Shown: in pieces, positions 7,249 to 51,397 of the stretch
How positions within the stretch are numbered: position 1 is the first letter of the stretch
Layout: each line of letters starts with the position of its first letter
Source of the DNA: a virus
Lineage: Duplodnaviria; Caudoviricetes
IMG/VR virus record: IMGVR_UViG_3300013121_000037
Location: 48,345 to 112,344 of that record
Direction: 5' to 3' (one strand)
DNA: 64,000 bases
Notes under the pieces: generated by a model
Databases searched by the model: none
What the model was told of the DNA's origin: nothing
Seen by the model: the letters and a program-made list of their open reading frames with translations, nothing else
Position numbers and translations under genes: made by a program

Positions 7249-7515
7249 CTATTTATGGCGGATTTCCTGCAAAATTCGGTTGGCAATCCATCCCAAAGAT
7301 TTGAACAGTTTGCTCCGGTCGCCGTACAGGTCTGGATAAAGCACCGTATGAGCGAGGTAGGTGCTGGCACATACCTCGCAAAACCAGAAATCATCATGGT
7401 TTCCTTCTGCCCAGCGCTCCGTCCCCTCACCGCGATAGTTTTTCAGCGGGATGCCGCGAAAACCACAGCACTCACATTCTCCTGGTGACTCTGTAGTTTG
7501 TTCCTGCTCACCCAT
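7249..7515 (-). CDS. hypothetical Cys-rich protein
   Basis: RBS immediately after a palindrome; CECC and CEVC. Confidence 0.45.
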   Translation of the reverse strand: MGEQEQTTESPGECECCGFRGIPLKNYRGEGTERWAEGNHDDFWFCEVCASTYLAHTVLYPDLYGDRSKLFKSLGWIANRILQEIRHK

Positions 7516-7581
7516 GACAAAAACTCCTCTCCACCATTCACTGCGCAAAAGTAGACAGTTGCATTTTGCGCAGTGAGCAGG

Positions 7582-8712
7582 CTACACCGGGGTTTCCTTG
7601 ACCACGATTGGCACCAGCACATAGCGATAATGGTCCGCCGTGGTCAGCAAGGATGGCGAGGTTGCATCCTGCAAGTGCCAGGTCACCTCCTCGTCAGTCG
7701 GCAGCACCTTGAGAAAGTCCAGCACCGCCTGCGGCGCCAGGTAAATGGTGAGGGCCGGTCCCGTGAACGCGATGGGAATGGCCACCTTGGCCCGCCCCGT
7801 TTGCGGTCCCTGTGCCGACAGGGTCAACCTCCCATCCGTGAAGGCAAACTGCACCCGCCGCGTTTGCTCATCCGTCATCGTCGCCGCCTGCCGTACCGCC
7901 GTCAACAATACCCCAACCCGTACTTTGGCCGTGGCCACACAATCCTTGCTGGCTGGAATCACCGCCTGCCAGTTTGGAAAACGTCCCTCCACCAGCCGGC
8001 TATACAATAATCCCCGCTCACTCTGCACCAGTATCTCATTGGCGCGCAGCGTTACCATGATCCGCTCGTCCGGGTCGGTCAGCAGCCGTGCCAGCAGCAC
8101 CAGTGCCTTTTCTGGCACCACCGGTTGCCCCTGCGGTGGCGCAGTGCCATTGGTTTCTACCTCCTGCTCCGTCACCGCCAACCGCCGTCCATCCGTGGCC
8201 ACCAGATGCAGCGCCGTCCCCCGCACATCCCAGAGAATGCCCCGGGTTGCCGTGTAACGGGCATTCTCCTCTGCCACCGCGAACAGTGTCCTGGTAATGA
8301 ATTTCTGCACGTCACTGGCCAGCAAAGAATACCCAACCAGGCCACTGACCACCGGCATATCTGGGAAAATGCTGGGGTCTTCCCCCGGCAATTCAAACTC
8401 CGTGCTGTCAGTAACAATGGTCGTCGTGGTGTTGTCCGAGGTGATGGTCAAACTATCGTCGGGCAACTCCCCCAAAATCGCAGTCAGTTTGGCCGCAGGC
8501 CACAGCGCCGCTCCCGCCTCCAGCACCGCCACCGAACGCAGGTCCAACCGTAGACCAATCTCGGTATCCGTGCCCTGCACCGTGATACCGTTGTCCGTGG
8601 TGGACACCTGGAAATTCGCCAGCACCGGCATGACCTGCTTGCCCGTGGGAATTACTCCCAGTATGGTCTTGCACAGTGCCAGTAGTCCCTGCCGATGTAC
8701 CGTGATCTTCAT
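7582..8712 (-). CDS. dnaN: DNA polymerase III beta sliding clamp
   Basis: 376 aa; GTDTEI, VATDGRRLA and SRLVEGRFPNWQAVIP signatures. Confidence 0.92.
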   Translation of the reverse strand: MKITVHRQGLLALCKTILGVIPTGKQVMPVLANFQVSTTDNGITVQGTDTEIGLRLDLRSVAVLEAGAALWPAAKLTAILGELPDDSLTITSDNTTTTIVTDSTEFELPGEDPSIFPDMPVVSGLVGYSLLASDVQKFITRTLFAVAEENARYTATRGILWDVRGTALHLVATDGRRLAVTEQEVETNGTAPPQGQPVVPEKALVLLARLLTDPDERIMVTLRANEILVQSERGLLYSRLVEGRFPNWQAVIPASKDCVATAKVRVGVLLTAVRQAATMTDEQTRRVQFAFTDGRLTLSAQGPQTGRAKVAIPIAFTGPALTIYLAPQAVLDFLKVLPTDEEVTWHLQDATSPSLLTTADHYRYVLVPIVVKETPV

Positions 8713-24560: not shown

Positions 24561-25892
24561 TTGACACTCCACATGCCTAAAGGCAGGGGATTCTCGGTTC
24601 GACACCCGTTGCCAGCGCGTACGCTGGTCTGACACAGGCTCCCCGAGCATTTGCTTTGTCCGCGTGTCCCGCGGCCAACAGACGTAGACCTTCGTCCCGG
24701 ATATTCCGGGCGGCATTGAGATCGCGGTCATGAACGACGCCACAACAGCATATCCATTCCCGATCCGCCAATGTCAGCGCGTCGTTTTTCACGCCGCACA
24801 CATGGCACAGCCTGGTCGAAGGGAAGAAGCGGTCGATGGTGACGTGATGCTTGCGCTGCCAGACGGTTTTATAGGCCAGTTGGCGCACAAACTCGCCACA
24901 CGCCGCGTCCAGAAAACTCTTAGCCAGCTTGGTTCTCGCAAGGCCGCGAAGATTCAGGGACTCGACACACACGCCATCAAACCGCTTCACGATTGTCGCA
25001 CTGAGTTTATGAAGAAAATCCTGCCGCTGGTCGGCAGTCTGTTGATGGATACGGGCCACGCGCTGGCTGGCCTTGCGCTGGCGGTTGCTGCCTTTTTTGC
25101 AACGGGAGAAACGACGCTGGGCGCGGGCGAGTTTCCGTTCTTGCTTGCGGAAGAACTGCGGGGCAACTTTGCTCTCGCCAGTGGAGAGCATGACGAAGTT
25201 GTGCAAACCCAGGTCGATGCCTACGACGCTGGCAGGATCAGGCATGAGCAGAGGTGTGTCGGGCATCGTGAATACGACAACCAGCGTGACAAACCACTGA
25301 CCGCTCGCGTTCCGCTTAAATGTCGCGCTCTTGGTTTCGCCTTCGATGAGTTGGGACTGACGGATGCGCACCCAGCCAACTTTGGGAACGTAGACCTTGC
25401 CATCGGCCACCTTGACCCGTTGGGGAATGCGGAAACGTGGCGAGTCTTTTTTCTTGGCCTTGAAGCGGGGAAACTTGCCGCGTTTCTCGAAGAAATTGAC
25501 GAAGGCACGGTCCAGATCCTTGAGGGTTTGCTGCAAGGCTTGCGAATCAGTTTCGCGCAGCCATTCCATTCCTGGTTTGTGCTTCAGTTCAGTCAACTCG
25601 GCGGAAAGCAGCGCAGCAGGCATCGACTTGCCAGTCTCAGCGTAGTATGCCTTGCGGCGAGCGAGTGCCCAGTTCCAAACGAACCGACGGTCCGAAGCCA
25701 TTCGCATCAACGCTTGACCTTGCAGGAATGTCGGACGCATTCGGAATCGATAGCTTCTCTGGAGAACAGTCATGGGTCAAACGCTCTTTTGGTTTTCGAT
25801 GGCCGATTAGTTCGAGTTTTTGAGCAGTTTCATAAGCGTACGACCCTTCATCCCCATGAATAAATTCAGGGACTTTCTGGCCATACTGCACG
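24561..25892 (-). mobile_element. IS200/IS605-family, TnpB-only (IS1341-like) element
   Basis: Inserted 3' of TTAC; left end has AAAG then hairpin; right end has GAAT, hairpin, then TCAA; no target duplication; no tnpA. Confidence 0.9.
24577..25773 (-). CDS. tnpB: RNA-guided endonuclease TnpB
   Basis: YRFRMRP/RFVWN N-terminus; RuvC residues in GIDLG, VESL and DRDLNAARNI; CxxC zinc ribbon. Confidence 0.95.
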   Translation of the reverse strand: MTVLQRSYRFRMRPTFLQGQALMRMASDRRFVWNWALARRKAYYAETGKSMPAALLSAELTELKHKPGMEWLRETDSQALQQTLKDLDRAFVNFFEKRGKFPRFKAKKKDSPRFRIPQRVKVADGKVYVPKVGWVRIRQSQLIEGETKSATFKRNASGQWFVTLVVVFTMPDTPLLMPDPASVVGIDLGLHNFVMLSTGESKVAPQFFRKQERKLARAQRRFSRCKKGSNRQRKASQRVARIHQQTADQRQDFLHKLSATIVKRFDGVCVESLNLRGLARTKLAKSFLDAACGEFVRQLAYKTVWQRKHHVTIDRFFPSTRLCHVCGVKNDALTLADREWICCCGVVHDRDLNAARNIRDEGLRLLAAGHADKANARGACVRPAYALATGVEPRIPCL

Positions 25893-30037: not shown

Positions 30038-31146
30038 GAGCGATTGGTGGCCTGGTGGTAGGCTTTTTCGTGGAGCCAACCACGCCCATTGAGGGAACCA
30101 ACTCCCAGGCGGCAGGTGGTGCAACATTTGTTCCGCACCAGTCCGGTTCCTGTGCATTCCGGACAGACCGCGTAGGGCTTGATATGCTTCAAATTCTGGA
30201 AGATCCTCTGTGACTCGTGAACCTGTTCCTGCAACTTCGGTTCGTTCAGCACGGTCAATTCGTTGAAAATGGCCGTCAGTTGCTTCGCCAACTGCGCGGC
30301 CTGTTCAATCTTCTCCCGGGTCGCAAAAACCTCATGCAACTCCAGCGGAACCACAAAATTGAGTTCATCATGCACCACTGGCGCCACGACTGGTTCATCG
30401 CCCGTGGGCAGGGCATCGAATTCCTTCTTGACCGTGCGCACCGTGTTGCGTGAACAGCCGATCTTCTCGGCAATGTGGGTCAGGTTCGGCTCCTCGTCGC
30501 CACAGGCCGCCAGTTCCTGCAGGATGGCCTGCCGCTGCACCTCCCGATCCGCTGGCGAGGTGTGCTTGTCCCCCCGCCGCCGCGTCGGGGTCACGATGAT
30601 CGGTGTATCCGCCTGCCCATTGCTGCTGGTGGGCGTGGTTTGGTCAGGACGTGGTTGGAGCAGTGTTTTCTGGACAACCTGGCCAGTCTTGCGCCGCTCG
30701 ATGGCCTTGTCGGCATAGAAGCGGGTACAACCGGCGCGGGCCATCAGGGCCGCGGAGTTGAGGTCCGGCCAGCGGGCCAGCACCTTGTCAACCAGGGCAT
30801 GCCAGTCAGTGGGGGTGTGCTTGCGCCCGTGCTGGTTGTGGGCGTTAATCGCCAGGCACATCTGCAGCGATTCATCCACCGAACTGGTAAACACCTCCTT
30901 GAGGGGCAAATCTTCCGGGTTCAGTTCCAGTTCCTGCCACAGCAGAAGGCGATTGATGCCGTCAATCACAATGCCGCGCTGGTCGTGAATGATGGGTTTT
31001 TCAAACCCGTCCGCCAGCACGCTTTCACGCATGTCCTCCTTCTCCTCCGACGTCCAAAGACGAAAGAACCCGGCAAAATCGAGTAACAGATCCCGATCCC
31101 CCACCAGAATGCTGGCCGGGGTTGTTGTCACTGCGGCAGTCGTCAT
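30034..31146 (-). CDS. ParB-like N-terminal domain protein with HTH and Zn ribbon
   Basis: GFEKPII...IDGINR; IAEKIGCSRNTV; CPECTGTG. Confidence 0.65.
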   Translation of the reverse strand: MTTAAVTTTPASILVGDRDLLLDFAGFFRLWTSEEKEDMRESVLADGFEKPIIHDQRGIVIDGINRLLLWQELELNPEDLPLKEVFTSSVDESLQMCLAINAHNQHGRKHTPTDWHALVDKVLARWPDLNSAALMARAGCTRFYADKAIERRKTGQVVQKTLLQPRPDQTTPTSSNGQADTPIIVTPTRRRGDKHTSPADREVQRQAILQELAACGDEEPNLTHIAEKIGCSRNTVRTVKKEFDALPTGDEPVVAPVVHDELNFVVPLELHEVFATREKIEQAAQLAKQLTAIFNELTVLNEPKLQEQVHESQRIFQNLKHIKPYAVCPECTGTGLVRNKCCTTCRLGVGSLNGRGWLHEKAYHQATNRS

Positions 31147-31175
31147 GAGTGTCAATCCTTGCAACGGGTAATAAA

Positions 31176-32141
31176 TCAGGTGCGGATGGTTCGTGCCGCA
31201 TCCTCGGTTTTCTTCGCGTTCTCCTCGCTGGCCCAGACAAACTTGCCAATGGTTTCCAGCGCCAGTTGTACCGTTTTCGTGTCCCAGTCCTTGACTGGAC
31301 GTTTTTCGTTGCAACGGTCCTGGGCCAGCGTCGTGATAAGGCGAATCAGTTCTCCCGCCTTGGCCAGCGGCACAGGCCGATTCTTGGTCGGCGTGGCCAG
31401 ATACTGGTCATACCAGGGCAAGAATTCCGCGAAGGTGGCTCCAGAATGGGGCCGCAGTGGCGAGCCTTCCTGGGTGATGGCAGTCTCCACCTCTCCATAG
31501 CGGTCGGCAGGAATTTCCAGCAACCGCTGCACGCCAAAGACGCGAGTCAGCGCTGCCATCGTTACCCCGTTGGCCAACATCAGTTTCCACAACTCCATCG
31601 CCTGATCCGCATTGATAACTTTGGGCGCTGGCGGTTCTGCTGCTGGACTGGGTTGGTGATTGCCAGTGTTACCACTCTGAGCGGGCAACGCCCATGCGGG
31701 CAGTTTCGGTGTGCTGGTAAACCGCTTCTTCTGCGGGTCATAGTCCACCCACTGGTGCGGCAAGCGGTACAGGTAGCGTCCCAGACCAAACTTGATGGCA
31801 ACCCGTTTGAGTGAGTCGGAAAAAGCTGCCTTGAGCCGGTCCCCCTCGTCGGGTTGTTCGCTGGGGGAACCCACATCCTGCTTGGTGATCCAGACACCGT
31901 TAATGCAAATGGACAACCGGCAAACCACACTACCTTCCGGCAATGGTTTGTACCGATCACACCACCCCTCCACACCCAGCACATCGTCCAGGCGGTCCTC
32001 TATCACGCGGGCGTCCACATACGCGACGGCCAAAGCCCGGTTGCCGTTGGTGGCCTGCGGTTTCCATTTGATCTCGCTGGGGTCAAATGGTGCCGCCAAT
32101 GCTTCCTGAATCGCACGCGCCGACAATGGTTGCTCACTCAT
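31176..32141 (-). CDS. Rad52/Rad22-family single-strand annealing protein
   Basis: LAAPF...YVDAR...RLDDVLG...W; KAAFSDSLKRVAIKFGLGRYLY. Confidence 0.88.
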   Translation of the reverse strand: MSEQPLSARAIQEALAAPFDPSEIKWKPQATNGNRALAVAYVDARVIEDRLDDVLGVEGWCDRYKPLPEGSVVCRLSICINGVWITKQDVGSPSEQPDEGDRLKAAFSDSLKRVAIKFGLGRYLYRLPHQWVDYDPQKKRFTSTPKLPAWALPAQSGNTGNHQPSPAAEPPAPKVINADQAMELWKLMLANGVTMAALTRVFGVQRLLEIPADRYGEVETAITQEGSPLRPHSGATFAEFLPWYDQYLATPTKNRPVPLAKAGELIRLITTLAQDRCNEKRPVKDWDTKTVQLALETIGKFVWASEENAKKTEDAARTIRT

Positions 32142-42743: not shown

Positions 42744-43022
42744 ATGCAACTTTTCACGGTGGCTGAGGTGGCGGCACAACTGCGACTGTCTCGAGCCATG
42801 ATCTATCAACTATGCCAGCGTGGCGACCTGCGGCACGAACGCCACGGTCTGCGCCGCGGCAAGATCCTCATTCCCGCCGACGCCATAGCGGACTACAGAC
42901 AGTCCAGGACGCACCAGGCACAGTGCGACCACCAGGAACCTGTTGAGGAACCCTATCATTTTGAGTTTATCCGCCCGCGACCTTCCCCAAAGCAGCCAGC
43001 AAGTAACTGTGATCGTGGTTGA
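42744..43022 (+). CDS. excisionase-like HTH_17 protein
   Basis: LFTVAEVAAQLRLSRAMIYQLCQRGDL; convergent with the integrase. Confidence 0.75.
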   Translation: MQLFTVAEVAAQLRLSRAMIYQLCQRGDLRHERHGLRRGKILIPADAIADYRQSRTHQAQCDHQEPVEEPYHFEFIRPRPSPKQPASNCDRG

Positions 43023-44031
43023 TATGCGCGTAGACGCGGGCCAGCATGGACGTATCGCTGTGACCCAGCAGAATCGAGACGGTCAGCGCATCCACCCCAG
43101 CGGCCAGCAACCGGGTTGCCAGGGAGTGCCGGTAATCGGTCAAACAGAACTTCTTGCCCAGTTTCCGGGCCAGATAGCGAAACCGGCAATTGGTGGCGTC
43201 AGGCGTCCAGGGCAAATCGTCGGTGTTCCGAAAGAGCGGTCCCGCCGGCCAGCGGGCCGCCAACCGTGCCACAATCGCCTCTGCCTCCGCATTCAAGTAG
43301 ATCAGTCGCACGGGCGTGCCTGGCTTCTCCTCCCCCAGCGCAAAGCGGATACGGTGATTGGCCAGGTCGAGGTGGCGTGCCTCCAGCGCGATGGTTTCCT
43401 GACAGCGTGCCCCCGTGTGCCAGGAAAAGTTGCACAAATCGCGAAACTGCTCATCCCGCGACAGTGCCAGGATCTGCTGATGTTCCTCCGGAGCAATCAC
43501 GTTGTCCCGGCGCCCACCCGGCGGCTTTTTCAGATGGGCAATGGGGTTCTTCTCAATCAACCCCTGCTCCACGCACCAGGACAGGCACCGCTTCACGGCT
43601 CGCACATAGTTGCGCTTCGTGCCACTGGTCACATTCCTCATCCCATCCAGCCACTGCTGGACATGGAATGGTTTTAACTCAGTGACCAGCAAGTCAACGG
43701 GAATGTTCTCTGAAAAAACCTGCAACCGATCGGCGTACCATCTATGGGTGTCGTCAGCACGGTTGGCCTTTACCCATTTCAGGAACCTGTCCAGCAAAAC
43801 TACCACGGCTAACCGGTGGTGCCTCTGCACGGGTTGCTTGCCAGGCTTTGGTTGTGCCAGCAGACGCTGAAAGGCGTCAAGAATTGGTGACGGCGGGTTC
43901 CACCCCAGTTTGCCTTTTCTGGGGCGCGGCAGGTCGGCAGGATGCTCCCCCAGCAGATACTGATGCCCCGCCAGGGTCACCCACCAGGAATTCCGACTGG
44001 GCCTGTACCAGGGTTTCGCCGGTCGGGACAT
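42967..44031 (-). CDS. int: tyrosine integrase
   Basis: TGARCQE, YRHSLAT and LLGHSDTSMLARVYAH catalytic motifs. Confidence 0.92.
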   Translation of the reverse strand: MSRPAKPWYRPSRNSWWVTLAGHQYLLGEHPADLPRPRKGKLGWNPPSPILDAFQRLLAQPKPGKQPVQRHHRLAVVVLLDRFLKWVKANRADDTHRWYADRLQVFSENIPVDLLVTELKPFHVQQWLDGMRNVTSGTKRNYVRAVKRCLSWCVEQGLIEKNPIAHLKKPPGGRRDNVIAPEEHQQILALSRDEQFRDLCNFSWHTGARCQETIALEARHLDLANHRIRFALGEEKPGTPVRLIYLNAEAEAIVARLAARWPAGPLFRNTDDLPWTPDATNCRFRYLARKLGKKFCLTDYRHSLATRLLAAGVDALTVSILLGHSDTSMLARVYAHINHDHSYLLAALGKVAGG

Positions 44032-44048: not shown

Positions 44049-44268
44049 TACCGTGACAAATTACCGTGACAGTCAGAGGTGTTTTTCCCTAAGTCAGTAT
44101 CCCCGACAGGATTCGAACCTGTAACCTTCGGCTCCGGAGGCCGACGCCACCACAGCGCAAACTCACTGTCAAATAACAACTTGTGGCAAAAACACCACTG
44201 CACACCTACCATCGTTTTATAGCGGTTTTCGCCAGTTGGCAAGCGATACCGTGACAGATACCGTGACA
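44049..44268. other. attP-like site: core is the 3' half of tRNA-Arg(CCG) (44097-44147, minus strand), flanked by paired arm-type repeats
   Basis: GCGTCGGCCT-CCG-GAGCCGAAGGTTACAGGTTCGAATCCTGTCGGGGATAC with no 5' acceptor strand or D arm; TACCGTGACA at 44049, 44062, 44247 and 44259. Confidence 0.85.
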
Positions 44269-46448: not shown

Positions 46449-47189
46449 CGTTCATTTCCTCTTGCGGACTGGGAACCGCTCCCCACAGTGGGGAGTGCAT
46501 TACAGGGTGGGCGTCCCTGTCCTCTGCATTACTCGCCACGCGCCAGGGCGGCCAGCACCGCCCGCCGCAACTGGCGGTCGCCAATCCGACTCACCGCCAC
46601 CTCCAACCGGTGCCCATGTGCAACCGCACCATGCACCTGCCGTACCAGCATCCGAACAACAGTTTTCATCGCATCACCTCTTGTGTTGGCGTCCGTCTCG
46701 CCTGACACAAGTAATTCGCTGCTCACTGGCAGATATTTAACAGCAATCCGAGATTCTTTGTACAGATATGGATATGTGTACAGTAGTGAGCAAAACTAGA
46801 CTGTCTAGTTTTGCTCAGCGCGGATTGCGTGAAATATTCAACCTTGACTTGCGAATAATTTAACAGTAGGACAGATGGCAGTCGCCCACAACCGCCAGAG
46901 CAACCACCCATGCTTGACCCAACGAAACCCGTTGACATGCCATCCATTGGCAGTCGCCCCGCTGGACAGATCGCCTACTATGGTTGTACAAGGTGCCAGT
47001 GTCAGCATTTTGAAGGCACCAGACTGTTCCAGGAACACCTGCACTGGCAGTCGAGGCACGGCATCCAGGAAATGTGCCGCGCCGCCTACCTGCGGCAACT
47101 GGCGCAAACCAACTAAACTGTCTAGTTTTGCGCGGCGCGGATTGCGTGAAATATCTATCCTTGAACTGACAGTCGCCCAATAGCGAGGA

Positions 47190-47462
47190 GTGAAGACGAT
47201 GATTCTTAGCATCCGACAGGTTGAGATTGAGAATGAGGACACTGGCGAAACCACCGTTGGCTATCGCCTGTGCAATGCAGACGGACAAGGTTACGGCGAC
47301 GTGAGTCGTGCTGTTGATATCAATGGATACCACCGTATGCCACGCTCGCGGCCTCACCCAGCGCTGGGCGTGTTCGCCACCCGCGAAGAGGCTGTGGACA
47401 TGCTGGAGCAACTTGGTGCGGAACTGGCCGAGAAATGCTGTGGTGCCTTTGAGGTGGCGTGA
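47190..47462 (+). CDS. hypothetical protein
   Basis: GAGGAG RBS; coupled to the LAGLIDADG-like gene. Confidence 0.55.
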   Translation: MKTMILSIRQVEIENEDTGETTVGYRLCNADGQGYGDVSRAVDINGYHRMPRSRPHPALGVFATREEAVDMLEQLGAELAEKCCGAFEVA

Positions 47463-47803
47463 TGTCCAAGAAGCAAAAGTCGTTACTGACTGAACTCACC
47501 AGAGAGCAATGTGCCTGGCTCGCTGGTGTCATCGACTCCAGTGGCTACTTTGCCGCCCGCCGCGATGAGGATACCGGTTATCTGCGTTGCCGCTTTGCAC
47601 TGACCGGTCGCCGGGACTTGCTGGAAATCGCCCACAACCTGTTCGCGGGCGGCAAGATTATCCACGAACGCAACAATTGCCACCGCTGGGAACTCTGGTC
47701 CAAGGTGGAAATCTCCCGTCTCATCGACCTTGTGCAACCATACCTGCAACTATCCACACGGATAGAGCAGGTGCGAAACTACATCAGCGAAACCGAACGC
47801 TGA
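47462..47803 (+). CDS. single-motif LAGLIDADG-like protein lacking the catalytic acidic residue
   Basis: AWLAGVIDSSGYF; GGKI...RWEL...LIDLVQPYL. Confidence 0.7.
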   Translation: MSKKQKSLLTELTREQCAWLAGVIDSSGYFAARRDEDTGYLRCRFALTGRRDLLEIAHNLFAGGKIIHERNNCHRWELWSKVEISRLIDLVQPYLQLSTRIEQVRNYISETER

Positions 47804-47840
47804 CTGCGCAAAATGCTACTGTCTACTTTTGCGCAGTACC

Positions 47841-47874: not shown

Positions 47875-48695
47875 TGTCGGTTCCAAACCTGATCTGTCTG
47901 ATATCATTCTAGCGCTGGACAGTCCCCGCGTAAAGTAGAGCCAGCAGCACCGCCAGCGCCACCACAAACAGGGTAAGGCGCAGGCAGCGGCAAATGACTC
48001 CCCTTCAGCCGGTTTGCCGTTTCTTGCGCTGCAGCAACTTGGTAATAATCGCCGGTCCCAGCATATCATCCAGACGGGCATCGAAGCGCGACCACACCTC
48101 CGAATGCTTCAGCGTCTTGCTGTTGACCCGGTTCATATCCTTGAGGAATTCCTCCCAGAGTTTAGCGTGCTTGTCGTCGGGCAAGGTCCGCAAATCCAAC
48201 CCCAACCGGTTCATCTGCCGCCGGTGCAAAATACCTAGCCAACCCTGACGACGCTCCTCAATCGGTGGTTGCTGCCGTCTGGCCATGTCAGTACCTCGCA
48301 GAAGTTTTTTGGTCATCCTGGTTCGGCACAATATCAACGACGTGGCAAACGCCACCACGGCACACATGGTGGCACCCGCCCCTGCCAGAACCCATCCGGG
48401 TCCAGTTCCAGCATTCGCTGCAAGCCATCCCGCCGCAGGTTGGTATCACTCCCTCCATCCACCGCCCGCACCGCGTTATCAAACCAATCCAGCAACTGCT
48501 GCGCTTCCTCCAAAGTCGCCTGCGTTACAGCAGTACAACCAAACTTGCCTGCACGCAGTTCCCCGACAAAATCCCTGGCGCAGTAATACAACCGCAGCAA
48601 TTCATGGTGCGGTGGAAAACGTCTGGCCTCTCCCACTACTGGCCGGGTATCCGCCAGCGGCACCAATGTCAGCGTCAGTGTCAGCAGTACCGTAC

Positions 48696-50111: not shown

Positions 50112-50999
50112 TTAATTGGTGGGCGTGGCATTGAATACCCGGTAACCCGGTGCCACCACCGTTACCGATTTCGCACTGTTATCAATCGCCACATTCACCG
50201 CCCCGCTGCTCCCAGTGGGTGGTGGCGGTGGCGGTTGCTGTGGTTTCGGATAAATCTTGGCCACCAGACCCCTGTCGCTTGCACTGATCTGGTCGCCCCC
50301 CGGAATCGGTTGCCCCGACCGGGTCACACTGCCCGGGAACTGGTAGCACATGATGCTGCTCAAATCCACCCGCGGCGTGGCCATCAGCAGCGAGGACTCC
50401 TCCAGGGGCGTCAGGATCTGCTGCTGCACCATCTGTGCCGACCAGCCCAGCACCTGCCGCCCCCAGACAATCACCTTCTGCGGGTCCAGCAGGTTCACCG
50501 CCTCCCGCCGCATGTGCTCGTGCGGAAAGCCCAGCACATGGCCAAACTCATGCGGCACCACCCGCATATATTCCGCCGGGTCCGTATTCTCCGTGAACCC
50601 CTCCAGGTTCATCGTCTGCTGCCCGCGCAGGATGTGCAGGTTGTCCGTACCCAGGTACGACCAGTAACCACCACCACCCCGCAGGATGCGCACCACCGGA
50701 TCCGTGGTCGTCTCGAAAAACTCCACCTGGGCATACTGTCCCCAGAGATTGGCATGCTGCAAGATCAGGCGCCGGGTCGCCGCGGTGGGACTGTCCAGAA
50801 AACCCACCCCCAGTTTGACCCCCTCCGTCCCCCAGTATTTCTGCGCCAGTACCGCCAGTTTGCCTGGTGGCAAGATGTCGTAAATCTGGTCGGGCAGGCA
50901 CGCCGGCAGCACCGCATTGACCGGATTGATGTCCACCGCAGTTTTGGCCGCCTCCACCCACAGATCACCCGGCAAGTACATCGGCGTGCAGACAATCAT
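50112..50999 (-). CDS. metzincin (M12/astacin-like) zinc metalloprotease
   Basis: HEFGHVLGFPHEH and Met-turn SSIMCY. Confidence 0.88.
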   Translation of the reverse strand: MIVCTPMYLPGDLWVEAAKTAVDINPVNAVLPACLPDQIYDILPPGKLAVLAQKYWGTEGVKLGVGFLDSPTAATRRLILQHANLWGQYAQVEFFETTTDPVVRILRGGGGYWSYLGTDNLHILRGQQTMNLEGFTENTDPAEYMRVVPHEFGHVLGFPHEHMRREAVNLLDPQKVIVWGRQVLGWSAQMVQQQILTPLEESSLLMATPRVDLSSIMCYQFPGSVTRSGQPIPGGDQISASDRGLVAKIYPKPQQPPPPPPTGSSGAVNVAIDNSAKSVTVVAPGYRVFNATPTN

Positions 51000-51010
51000 G
51001 ACAAAAAGCC

Positions 51011-51397
51011 TCAAATAAAGTCGATTTTCTTTACCCCACGTCGCCCCAGTTCCAACCCCGCCCGCCAGAGATGCACCGTCTCTAGCACGTTGGGACACCA
51101 GGACAACCAGTTACGGCAATGGCCATACAAAAAGTGGCAATTTACCACTGGCCCCTCGCACAGAGTCAGCAGATTGTCCGGTGCCAGTTCCAGGTCGGGG
51201 AAAAGGTGATAGGGTTTTATGTGGTGAACCGCCAGGTTGGTGCGTGCCCCACAGGCGGCACACTCGGGTTGCTGCCGCAGGTGTTCCTGGCGTACCTGCT
51301 GCCACCGACTGCTGCGCGGGGCCAGTTGCACAGTCAGCAGTTGATACTCCCGCGCTACCGGGTCCGTTACCAACCACTGCCTGAGCCAACTGAGCAT
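51011..51397 (-). CDS. HNH endonuclease
   Basis: CAACG...VHHIKP...NLLTLC...CH. Confidence 0.85.
   Translation of the reverse strand: MLSWLRQWLVTDPVAREYQLLTVQLAPRSSRWQQVRQEHLRQQPECAACGARTNLAVHHIKPYHLFPDLELAPDNLLTLCEGPVVNCHFLYGHCRNWLSWCPNVLETVHLWRAGLELGRRGVKKIDFI

Follow-up and report, generated by a model that had tools for sequence, protein, structure and literature searches.

Does the small LAGLIDADG-like protein that is encoded among dispersed palindromes of this phage genome read these palindromes, is it a nucleic-acid binder kept for another task, or is it a selfish gene in decay? The window, i.e. the whole stretch of 64,000 nucleotides that was analyzed and to which positions refer unless the record is named, represents the final 64 kb of an IMG/VR virus record of 112,344 bp with 58% GC that was judged 79% complete. 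Genes on the plus strand are rare in this record and comprise 21 of the 133 called genes and about 9% of the coding bases, with the other 112 genes on the minus strand. A short plus-strand cassette of three genes, ORF68, ORF87 and ORF113, is located between two minus-strand blocks and has copies of a 35-bp palindrome on both sides. The first of these, P1 (46785-46819), belongs to the genome-wide palindrome family and has arms that make up a perfect dyad of 29 bp; it is located in the gap that separates the cassette from a divergently oriented minus-strand gene (46529-46726). ORF68 (46910-47116, plus strand) encodes a zinc-finger-like protein with a CxxC...H...H core, and its final codons and stop overlap a degenerate palindrome copy, P2 (47099-47136), which has kept its right half but has an insertion of 5 bp in its left arm. 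The small protein encoded by ORF87 (47199-47462, plus strand) has no family assignment. ORF87 ends in a TGA that shares bases with the start codon of ORF113 (47462-47803, plus strand) in an ATGA overlap, which suggests translational coupling of the two genes. A further family member, P3 (47803-47837), begins on the final base of the stop codon of ORF113. Beyond it, a strong intrinsic terminator on the minus strand (47874-47840), which has a GC-rich stem of 11 bp and then a run of T, marks the end of the converging block of minus-strand genes whose start is at 48367. In addition, a direct repeat of approximately 58 bp, made up of a palindrome right half and a box of approximately 30 bp, is found on the plus strand at 46794-46851 and again at 47110-47167, upstream of ORF87. 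Apart from these two positions, after P1 and after P2 and each time upstream of a cassette gene, the box is absent from the genome, and the repeat containing it is a candidate for a promoter or operator specific to the cassette. Searches with Pfam, PHROGs, NCBIfam and PADLOC returned no matches for ORF68, ORF87 and ten neighboring genes.

The 113-residue product of ORF113 carries a single LAGLIDADG-like motif, LAGVIDSSG, at residues 20-28. As a single sequence it matched Pfam LAGLIDADG_1 with an E-value of 0.14, i.e. below the cut-off, PHROG 5046 with an E-value of 4e-7, and I-HjeMI and I-AniI in the PDB with E-values of 0.003-0.008 (0.003 for I-HjeMI). When 1.84 billion representatives were scanned exhaustively with HMMER, 36 relatives were obtained, about half of them single-domain proteins of 103-157 residues, and a profile built from 15 relatives including ORF113 matched I-CreI-derived, I-MsoI and I-CvuI chains with E-values of 1e-23 to 1e-11 (8e-23 for the I-CreI-derived chains). 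The AlphaFold2 model obtained with the alignment of these relatives reached a pLDDT of 92 and displayed the canonical topology (helices at residues 14-27, 51-61 and 81-94; strands at 28-34, 41-49, 65-68 and 74-78); the single-sequence model was poor, with a pLDDT of 50. Foldseek gave a TM score of 0.74 to I-MsoI and I-CreI, and VIA-align gave Z scores of 12-14 to I-CvuI, I-MsoI and I-CreI, with residues 9-113 of ORF113 superimposed on I-CreI residues 2-111 at an rmsd of about 2.1 Å over 102 residues and 22% identity; homodimeric enzymes ranked first for the model in both comparisons. Since the profile, the AlphaFold2 model and the Foldseek and VIA-align results agree with homodimeric enzymes, the predicted fold of ORF113 can be assigned to the LAGLIDADG superfamily securely. 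The small residues Ala21 and Gly22 of the LAGLIDADG dimerization helix are likewise conserved. ORF113 is the sole LAGLIDADG copy in the 112-kb record and shows no intron or intein context, as no intron model scored between positions 44000 and 50000.

In I-CreI, Lys98 and Gln47 have catalytic roles, as also indicated by the titles of the PDB entries 1t9i and 1t9j, and in the profile alignment these two residues are matched by Ser98 and Gly49 of ORF113, respectively. At the third position, profile and sequence alignments both place Ser27 of ORF113 opposite I-CreI Asp20, the penultimate motif residue, which is catalytic and binds the catalytic metals (PMC6035192). In every characterized LAGLIDADG member, the acidic residue at this position serves as a metal ligand, and together with a nearby basic residue it forms the two most conserved residues of the LAGLIDADG active site (PMC3384342). 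Among the three closest relatives of ORF113, which are 29-41% identical, the position of the acid is occupied by Ser in P0002 and Gly in P0006, and P0004 keeps a Glu; the Lys is absent in all four members of this subclade, ORF113 included, and is kept by canonical family members. Because the catalytic acid and two further active-site residues have been lost and no second LAGLIDADG gene is present, ORF113 is very probably not a nuclease. That it might still be an active endonuclease relying on other residues could be argued from Asp25 (motif position 6) and Glu77, which are invariant across the subclade; however, neither of them aligns to an active-site position, the characterized members all use the penultimate acidic residue as metal ligand, and the record lacks a second LAGLIDADG gene that could provide an active partner, so that we consider a remaining nuclease activity extremely improbable. 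Several features listed in the preliminary description thus hold, namely the single-motif LAGLIDADG-like ORF of 113 residues, its free-standing position, its location in a rare plus-strand unit and, with the Gln47 and Lys98 equivalents gone as well, its reading as nuclease-dead.

If ORF113 does not cut DNA, it may have been retained for another function or may simply not yet have been deleted, and its relatives and cassette partners bear on both possibilities. No homologue of more than 41% identity was found for ORF113 in 5.8 billion proteins, GenBank phages gave neither a DNA match nor a tblastn match with ORF113, and a search of 401 Planctomycetota genomes produced one weak canonical LAGLIDADG match only, which was uninformative. 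The partners have closer homologues: P0041 is 75% identical to ORF68, and P0043, encoded on a 7.5-kb JGI contig, is 62% identical to ORF87. The CxxC...H...H core of ORF68, which has no Pfam family match, is conserved in P0041, in P0040 and in a gene at L007:289-510 that is 46% identical over the Cys/His core. L007 is an unrelated contig of 71% GC, and it also encodes P0004, the closest ORF113 relative among the contigs examined. A tblastn search with the cassette proteins against the contigs of the relatives revealed this zinc-finger-like gene approximately 300 bp upstream of P0004 and on the same strand; a new observation is that in two settings, the present cassette and an unrelated contig of very different base composition, a zinc-finger-like gene precedes the LAGLIDADG-like gene. 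A small gene between the two on L007 is not homologous to ORF87, and the GC-rich hairpins that follow the L007 cassette genes resemble ordinary terminators rather than a counterpart of the palindromes. The partial contig L008 repeats part of the L007 arrangement. Across the ORF113 subclade, no variation is seen at Arg33, Arg75 and Glu77, and the residues at 42 and 44 are always basic. Another unrelated viral contig carries three tandem paralogous canonical LAGLIDADG genes (L006:5366-7857) in a typical free-standing homing-endonuclease array.

The best explanation for these data, in which our confidence is evenly divided, is that ORF113 is a miniature single-domain LAGLIDADG protein of the I-CreI type that no longer cuts and has been kept as a non-catalytic nucleic-acid binder in a small accessory operon with ORF68 and ORF87. 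Of this explanation, the analysis has shown the fold, the lost catalytic acid, the presence of just one copy, the arrangement of the operon and the zinc-finger gene upstream on the unrelated contig. Beyond these, ORF113 would still dimerize through the LAGLIDADG helix, as suggested by the conserved Ala21 and Gly22, and its short Arg-rich beta-saddle would bind its own short target in DNA or RNA, which could be a former homing site or the cassette-specific box. A competing explanation, which we regard as somewhat unlikely, is that ORF113 represents a free-standing homing-endonuclease gene late in its homing cycle, point-mutated and functionless but undeleted. The loss of three active-site positions would be expected from such a gene, and inactivation after invasion is described as the usual fate of homing-endonuclease genes (PMC13619312). 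Furthermore, relatives of ORF113 in other phage contigs are found as tandem paralogues of the homing-endonuclease type, and the absence of any ORF113 homologue above 41% identity, compared to the 62-75% identity of the homologues of its operon partners, fits a LAGLIDADG gene that could be a replaceable, selfish part of the cassette. The support for retention from synteny comes from one short contig, L007, and the partial L008, and the cassettes share no homology in their middle gene. On the other hand, the reading frame of ORF113 is intact and overlaps that of ORF87 in a manner that suggests translational coupling, and relatives of 29-41% identity appear to share the loss of catalytic residues, yet the sheet-facing Arg residues, together with Glu77, remain invariant. 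Both observations, as well as the recurrence of the zinc-finger neighbor in a very different genome, argue for retention rather than decay. In line with this, small viral LAGLIDADG-like proteins of 104-129 residues are numerous and make up several large Atlas clusters.

Whether the palindromes provide the target of such a protein depends on the properties of the palindrome family, which comprises 53 exact CAAAA-N13-TTTTG copies and 56 near-exact ones in 112 kb, with 32 copies in the window compared to 0.07 expected by chance. Conservation spans positions -17 to +17, i.e. 35 bp, and peaks at ±7-11 and ±14-15. In 45 of 56 sites the inner 4-bp blocks are heterotypic, with [G/C]TA[G/A] paired with TGYN or CTCG (binomial p 3e-6, for two block classes that were defined after seeing the data). 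Independent of these classes, GTAG-GTAG pairs are depleted, as none was observed and 4.9 were expected. After orienting, the center base was T in 38 of 45 sites. The element is therefore intrinsically directional inside a symmetric frame, and P1 is one of only four copies with symmetric inner blocks. The location of the copies follows a genome-wide rule, in that palindromes are found at gene ends and flank most genes of the phage. In the commonest register of the genome, which occurs at eight sites including ORF113/P3, the stop codon ends at element position -17; of the 32 sites that have a called stop no more than 80 bp away, another 23 lie within approximately 50 bp of that stop. A second cluster of three copies in 1 kb, like the one around ORF113, is found at record positions 30962-31983. 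No match to the full palindrome pattern was obtained in other viral contigs, in which the half-site pattern gave single, chance-level matches only; searching 185,579 prokaryote genomes gave approximately the number of matches expected by chance and no multi-copy locus; and no relatives of the phage were detected in IMG/VR via the terminase, the ORF87 homologue P0043 or a tandem-HTH protein. A nearly identical palindrome of approximately 31 bp, which has the CAAAA...AC-T-GT...TTTTG frame but GGGG/CCCC inner blocks (L051, L063 and L073), recurs in Kribbibacterium, an Atopobiaceae MAG and a Planctomycetaceae MAG.

The preliminary description had proposed ORF113 as an autoregulated, genome-wide reader of these palindromes, which in a fuller form would mean that an ORF113 homodimer, alone or together with ORF68, docks on them and regulates its own operon via P1 and P3. 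Some elements of this proposal stand, since the fold is that of a free-standing single-motif protein of the I-CreI type without its catalytic acid, and since the palindromes at 46785-46819 and 47803-47837 are true family members. The copy placed at about 47102 exists as well but is the degenerate P2. A nuclease-dead, presumably dimeric DNA-binding fold, the three palindrome copies within 1.05 kb around ORF113, the position of P1 with its symmetric inner blocks in a divergent promoter gap, the predicted basic sheet of ORF113 and the lack of genes for ParB or SprT-like proteins in the phage genome would all be compatible with it. Moreover, the comparison to the symmetrized I-CreI site with its CAAAA-12-TTTTG frame is justified by published data (PMC1904291). 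The likeness of the two frames is real but incomplete, as the palindrome frame is 1 bp longer, its dyad falls on a base pair (odd center) and its half-sites are accordingly 1 bp further apart than those of I-CreI. The I-CreI residues reading AAA, which we take to be N30, Y33 and Q38, align in the profile alignment to Asp37, Tyr40 and a deletion in ORF113 and are thus not conserved as a set.

The size of the protein also fits poorly to the size of the element. I-CreI covers 22-24 bp with 163 residues, and ORF113 has 113 residues and stops at the equivalent of I-CreI residue ~111. DNA binding was not detectable with I-CreI truncated to residues 1-137, since the C-terminal loop is needed; this loop, SKTRKT, lies in contact with the DNA backbone and is indispensable for binding (PMC1904291), and it is absent from ORF113. 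In addition, the beta1-beta2 hairpin of ORF113 is five residues shorter than that of I-CreI and carries an acidic tip, Asp-Glu-Asp. Because of the short, acidic-tipped hairpin and the missing loop, the best-conserved palindrome positions, ±7-11 and ±14-15, are those that ORF113 would be least able to reach. A symmetric homodimer gives no reason for heterotypic blocks and a preferred center base, and the contigs of the ORF113 relatives (L005-L014) contained neither this repeat nor another dispersed palindrome family, an argument of little weight since these relatives are distant (26-41% identical). As for autoregulation, flanking palindromes are the norm in this genome and the stop-to-center register of P3 is shared by the other register sites, so that this part of the proposal is not supported. 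Taken together, the evidence does not support ORF113 as the protein that reads the 35-bp palindromes, a role that is also unlikely on structural grounds, and the model of genome-wide docking with control of the operon is equally improbable. We assign a still lower probability to its more specific version, in which ORF68 and ORF113 would form one DNA-docking complex that covers the palindromes genome-wide, with an ORF113 dimer on the central AC-W-GT and the inner blocks and zinc-finger subunits on the outer A-tract and CTGCG arms. Under the preferred reading as a retained binder with a target of its own, ORF113 would not be the palindrome reader, and palindromes would flank it since they flank most genes of the phage.

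If not ORF113, a conventional repressor-type protein might read the palindromes, with ORF113 as a bystander. Approximately 40 kb before the window, a gene for a LexA-like winged-helix protein and a gene for a 189-residue tandem-XRE protein are arranged divergently (L245:904-1962; record positions ~7429-8488), and a palindrome copy at 7829 sits between them. The LexA-like protein matches Pfam LexA_DNA_bind, and the tandem-XRE protein combines HTH_3 (residues 37-90) and HTH_31 (residues 131-168) in one chain. By its appearance, this divergent pair resembles an immunity switch. Two unlike HTH domains per chain would fit the heterotypic inner blocks and the fixed center base of the palindrome. Judging from their location and domain content, the tandem-XRE and LexA-like proteins would be better candidates for palindrome readers than ORF113. 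This reading is tentative and draws on position and domain logic; a footprint of 35 bp would still require an oligomer, and for covariation analysis IMG/VR provided no relatives of the tandem-HTH protein.

Similarities and differences to known systems further define what kind of protein ORF113 may be. It resembles I-CreI, I-MsoI and I-CvuI in overall structure (Z 12-14, and an rmsd of about 2 Å over 102 residues at 22% identity to I-CreI) and in the small residues of the dimerization helix. In contrast to I-CreI, however, it ends before helices 4-6 and the DNA-binding C-loop, has the shorter beta1-beta2 hairpin, carries Ser, Gly and Ser at the positions of Asp20, Gln47 and Lys98, and is not encoded in an intron. 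Judged by these alignments, ORF113 lacks defining features of an active homing endonuclease, i.e. the acidic metal-binding residue and the equivalents of Lys98 and Gln47. Active enzymes of this kind cut target sites of 14-40 bp and promote their own homing. The phage repressor-stoperator network of Cluster A mycobacteriophages is read by an HTH immunity repressor at asymmetric sites of approximately 13 bp. The preliminary model, in which one phage protein docks at dozens of gene-boundary sites, is similar in outline to this network, whereas the palindromes of the present phage are 35 bp long. With bI3-type maturases (PDB 2ab5; Z 11.9 to the ORF113 model), ORF113 would share the use of a LAGLIDADG fold for nucleic-acid binding without cleavage, but maturases are two-domain, intron-encoded RNA chaperones and ORF113 is associated with no intron. 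By analogy, ORF113 may functionally be closest in kind to WhiA (DUF199), a LAGLIDADG protein that has been domesticated and lacks catalytic residues (PMC3384342; Kaiser et al. 2009). Nevertheless, WhiA is a monomer that combines two domains with a C-terminal HTH and is encoded by a conserved chromosomal gene of Gram-positive bacteria, whereas ORF113 has one domain and no HTH, is phage-borne and has sparse relatives. In a limited literature search, no description of a dead free-standing mini-LAGLIDADG domain paired with a zinc-finger gene was found. If the reading as a retained binder is correct, phages would keep a minimal, free-standing, dead LAGLIDADG domain paired with a small zinc-finger protein. 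Homing endonucleases would then have been domesticated by a second route, independent of that of WhiA, and the protein would, moreover, offer a compact natural DNA-binding scaffold. For the palindromes themselves the outcome is mainly negative, as an attractive candidate reader drops out and the pair of tandem-XRE and LexA-like proteins comes to the fore, but it has also shown the sites to be intrinsically directional.

A few further features were noted in the vicinity of the cassette and elsewhere in the window. An element similar to the Twister-P5 ribozyme is located on the minus strand at 46464-46528, between two minus-strand genes, and is the sole copy in the record; it covers the full model (1-58) with an 11-nt insertion and scored 31.8 bits, compared to a gathering score of 37.6, with E-values of 9e-4 in a 6-kb search and 4e-5 in a search of 301 nt. 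A 398-residue protein in the replication region (24577-25773, minus strand) matched PHROG 506, annotated as 'transposase', with an E-value of 1e-110, and a 328-residue protein (50112-51098, minus strand) gave a weak match to astacin-type zinc metallopeptidases (E-value 4e-6). Finally, a tRNA-like fragment on the minus strand (44103-44155), which scored 30.8 bits and thus above the gathering score, adjoins a tyrosine integrase gene (42967-44031) and is probably the attP core.
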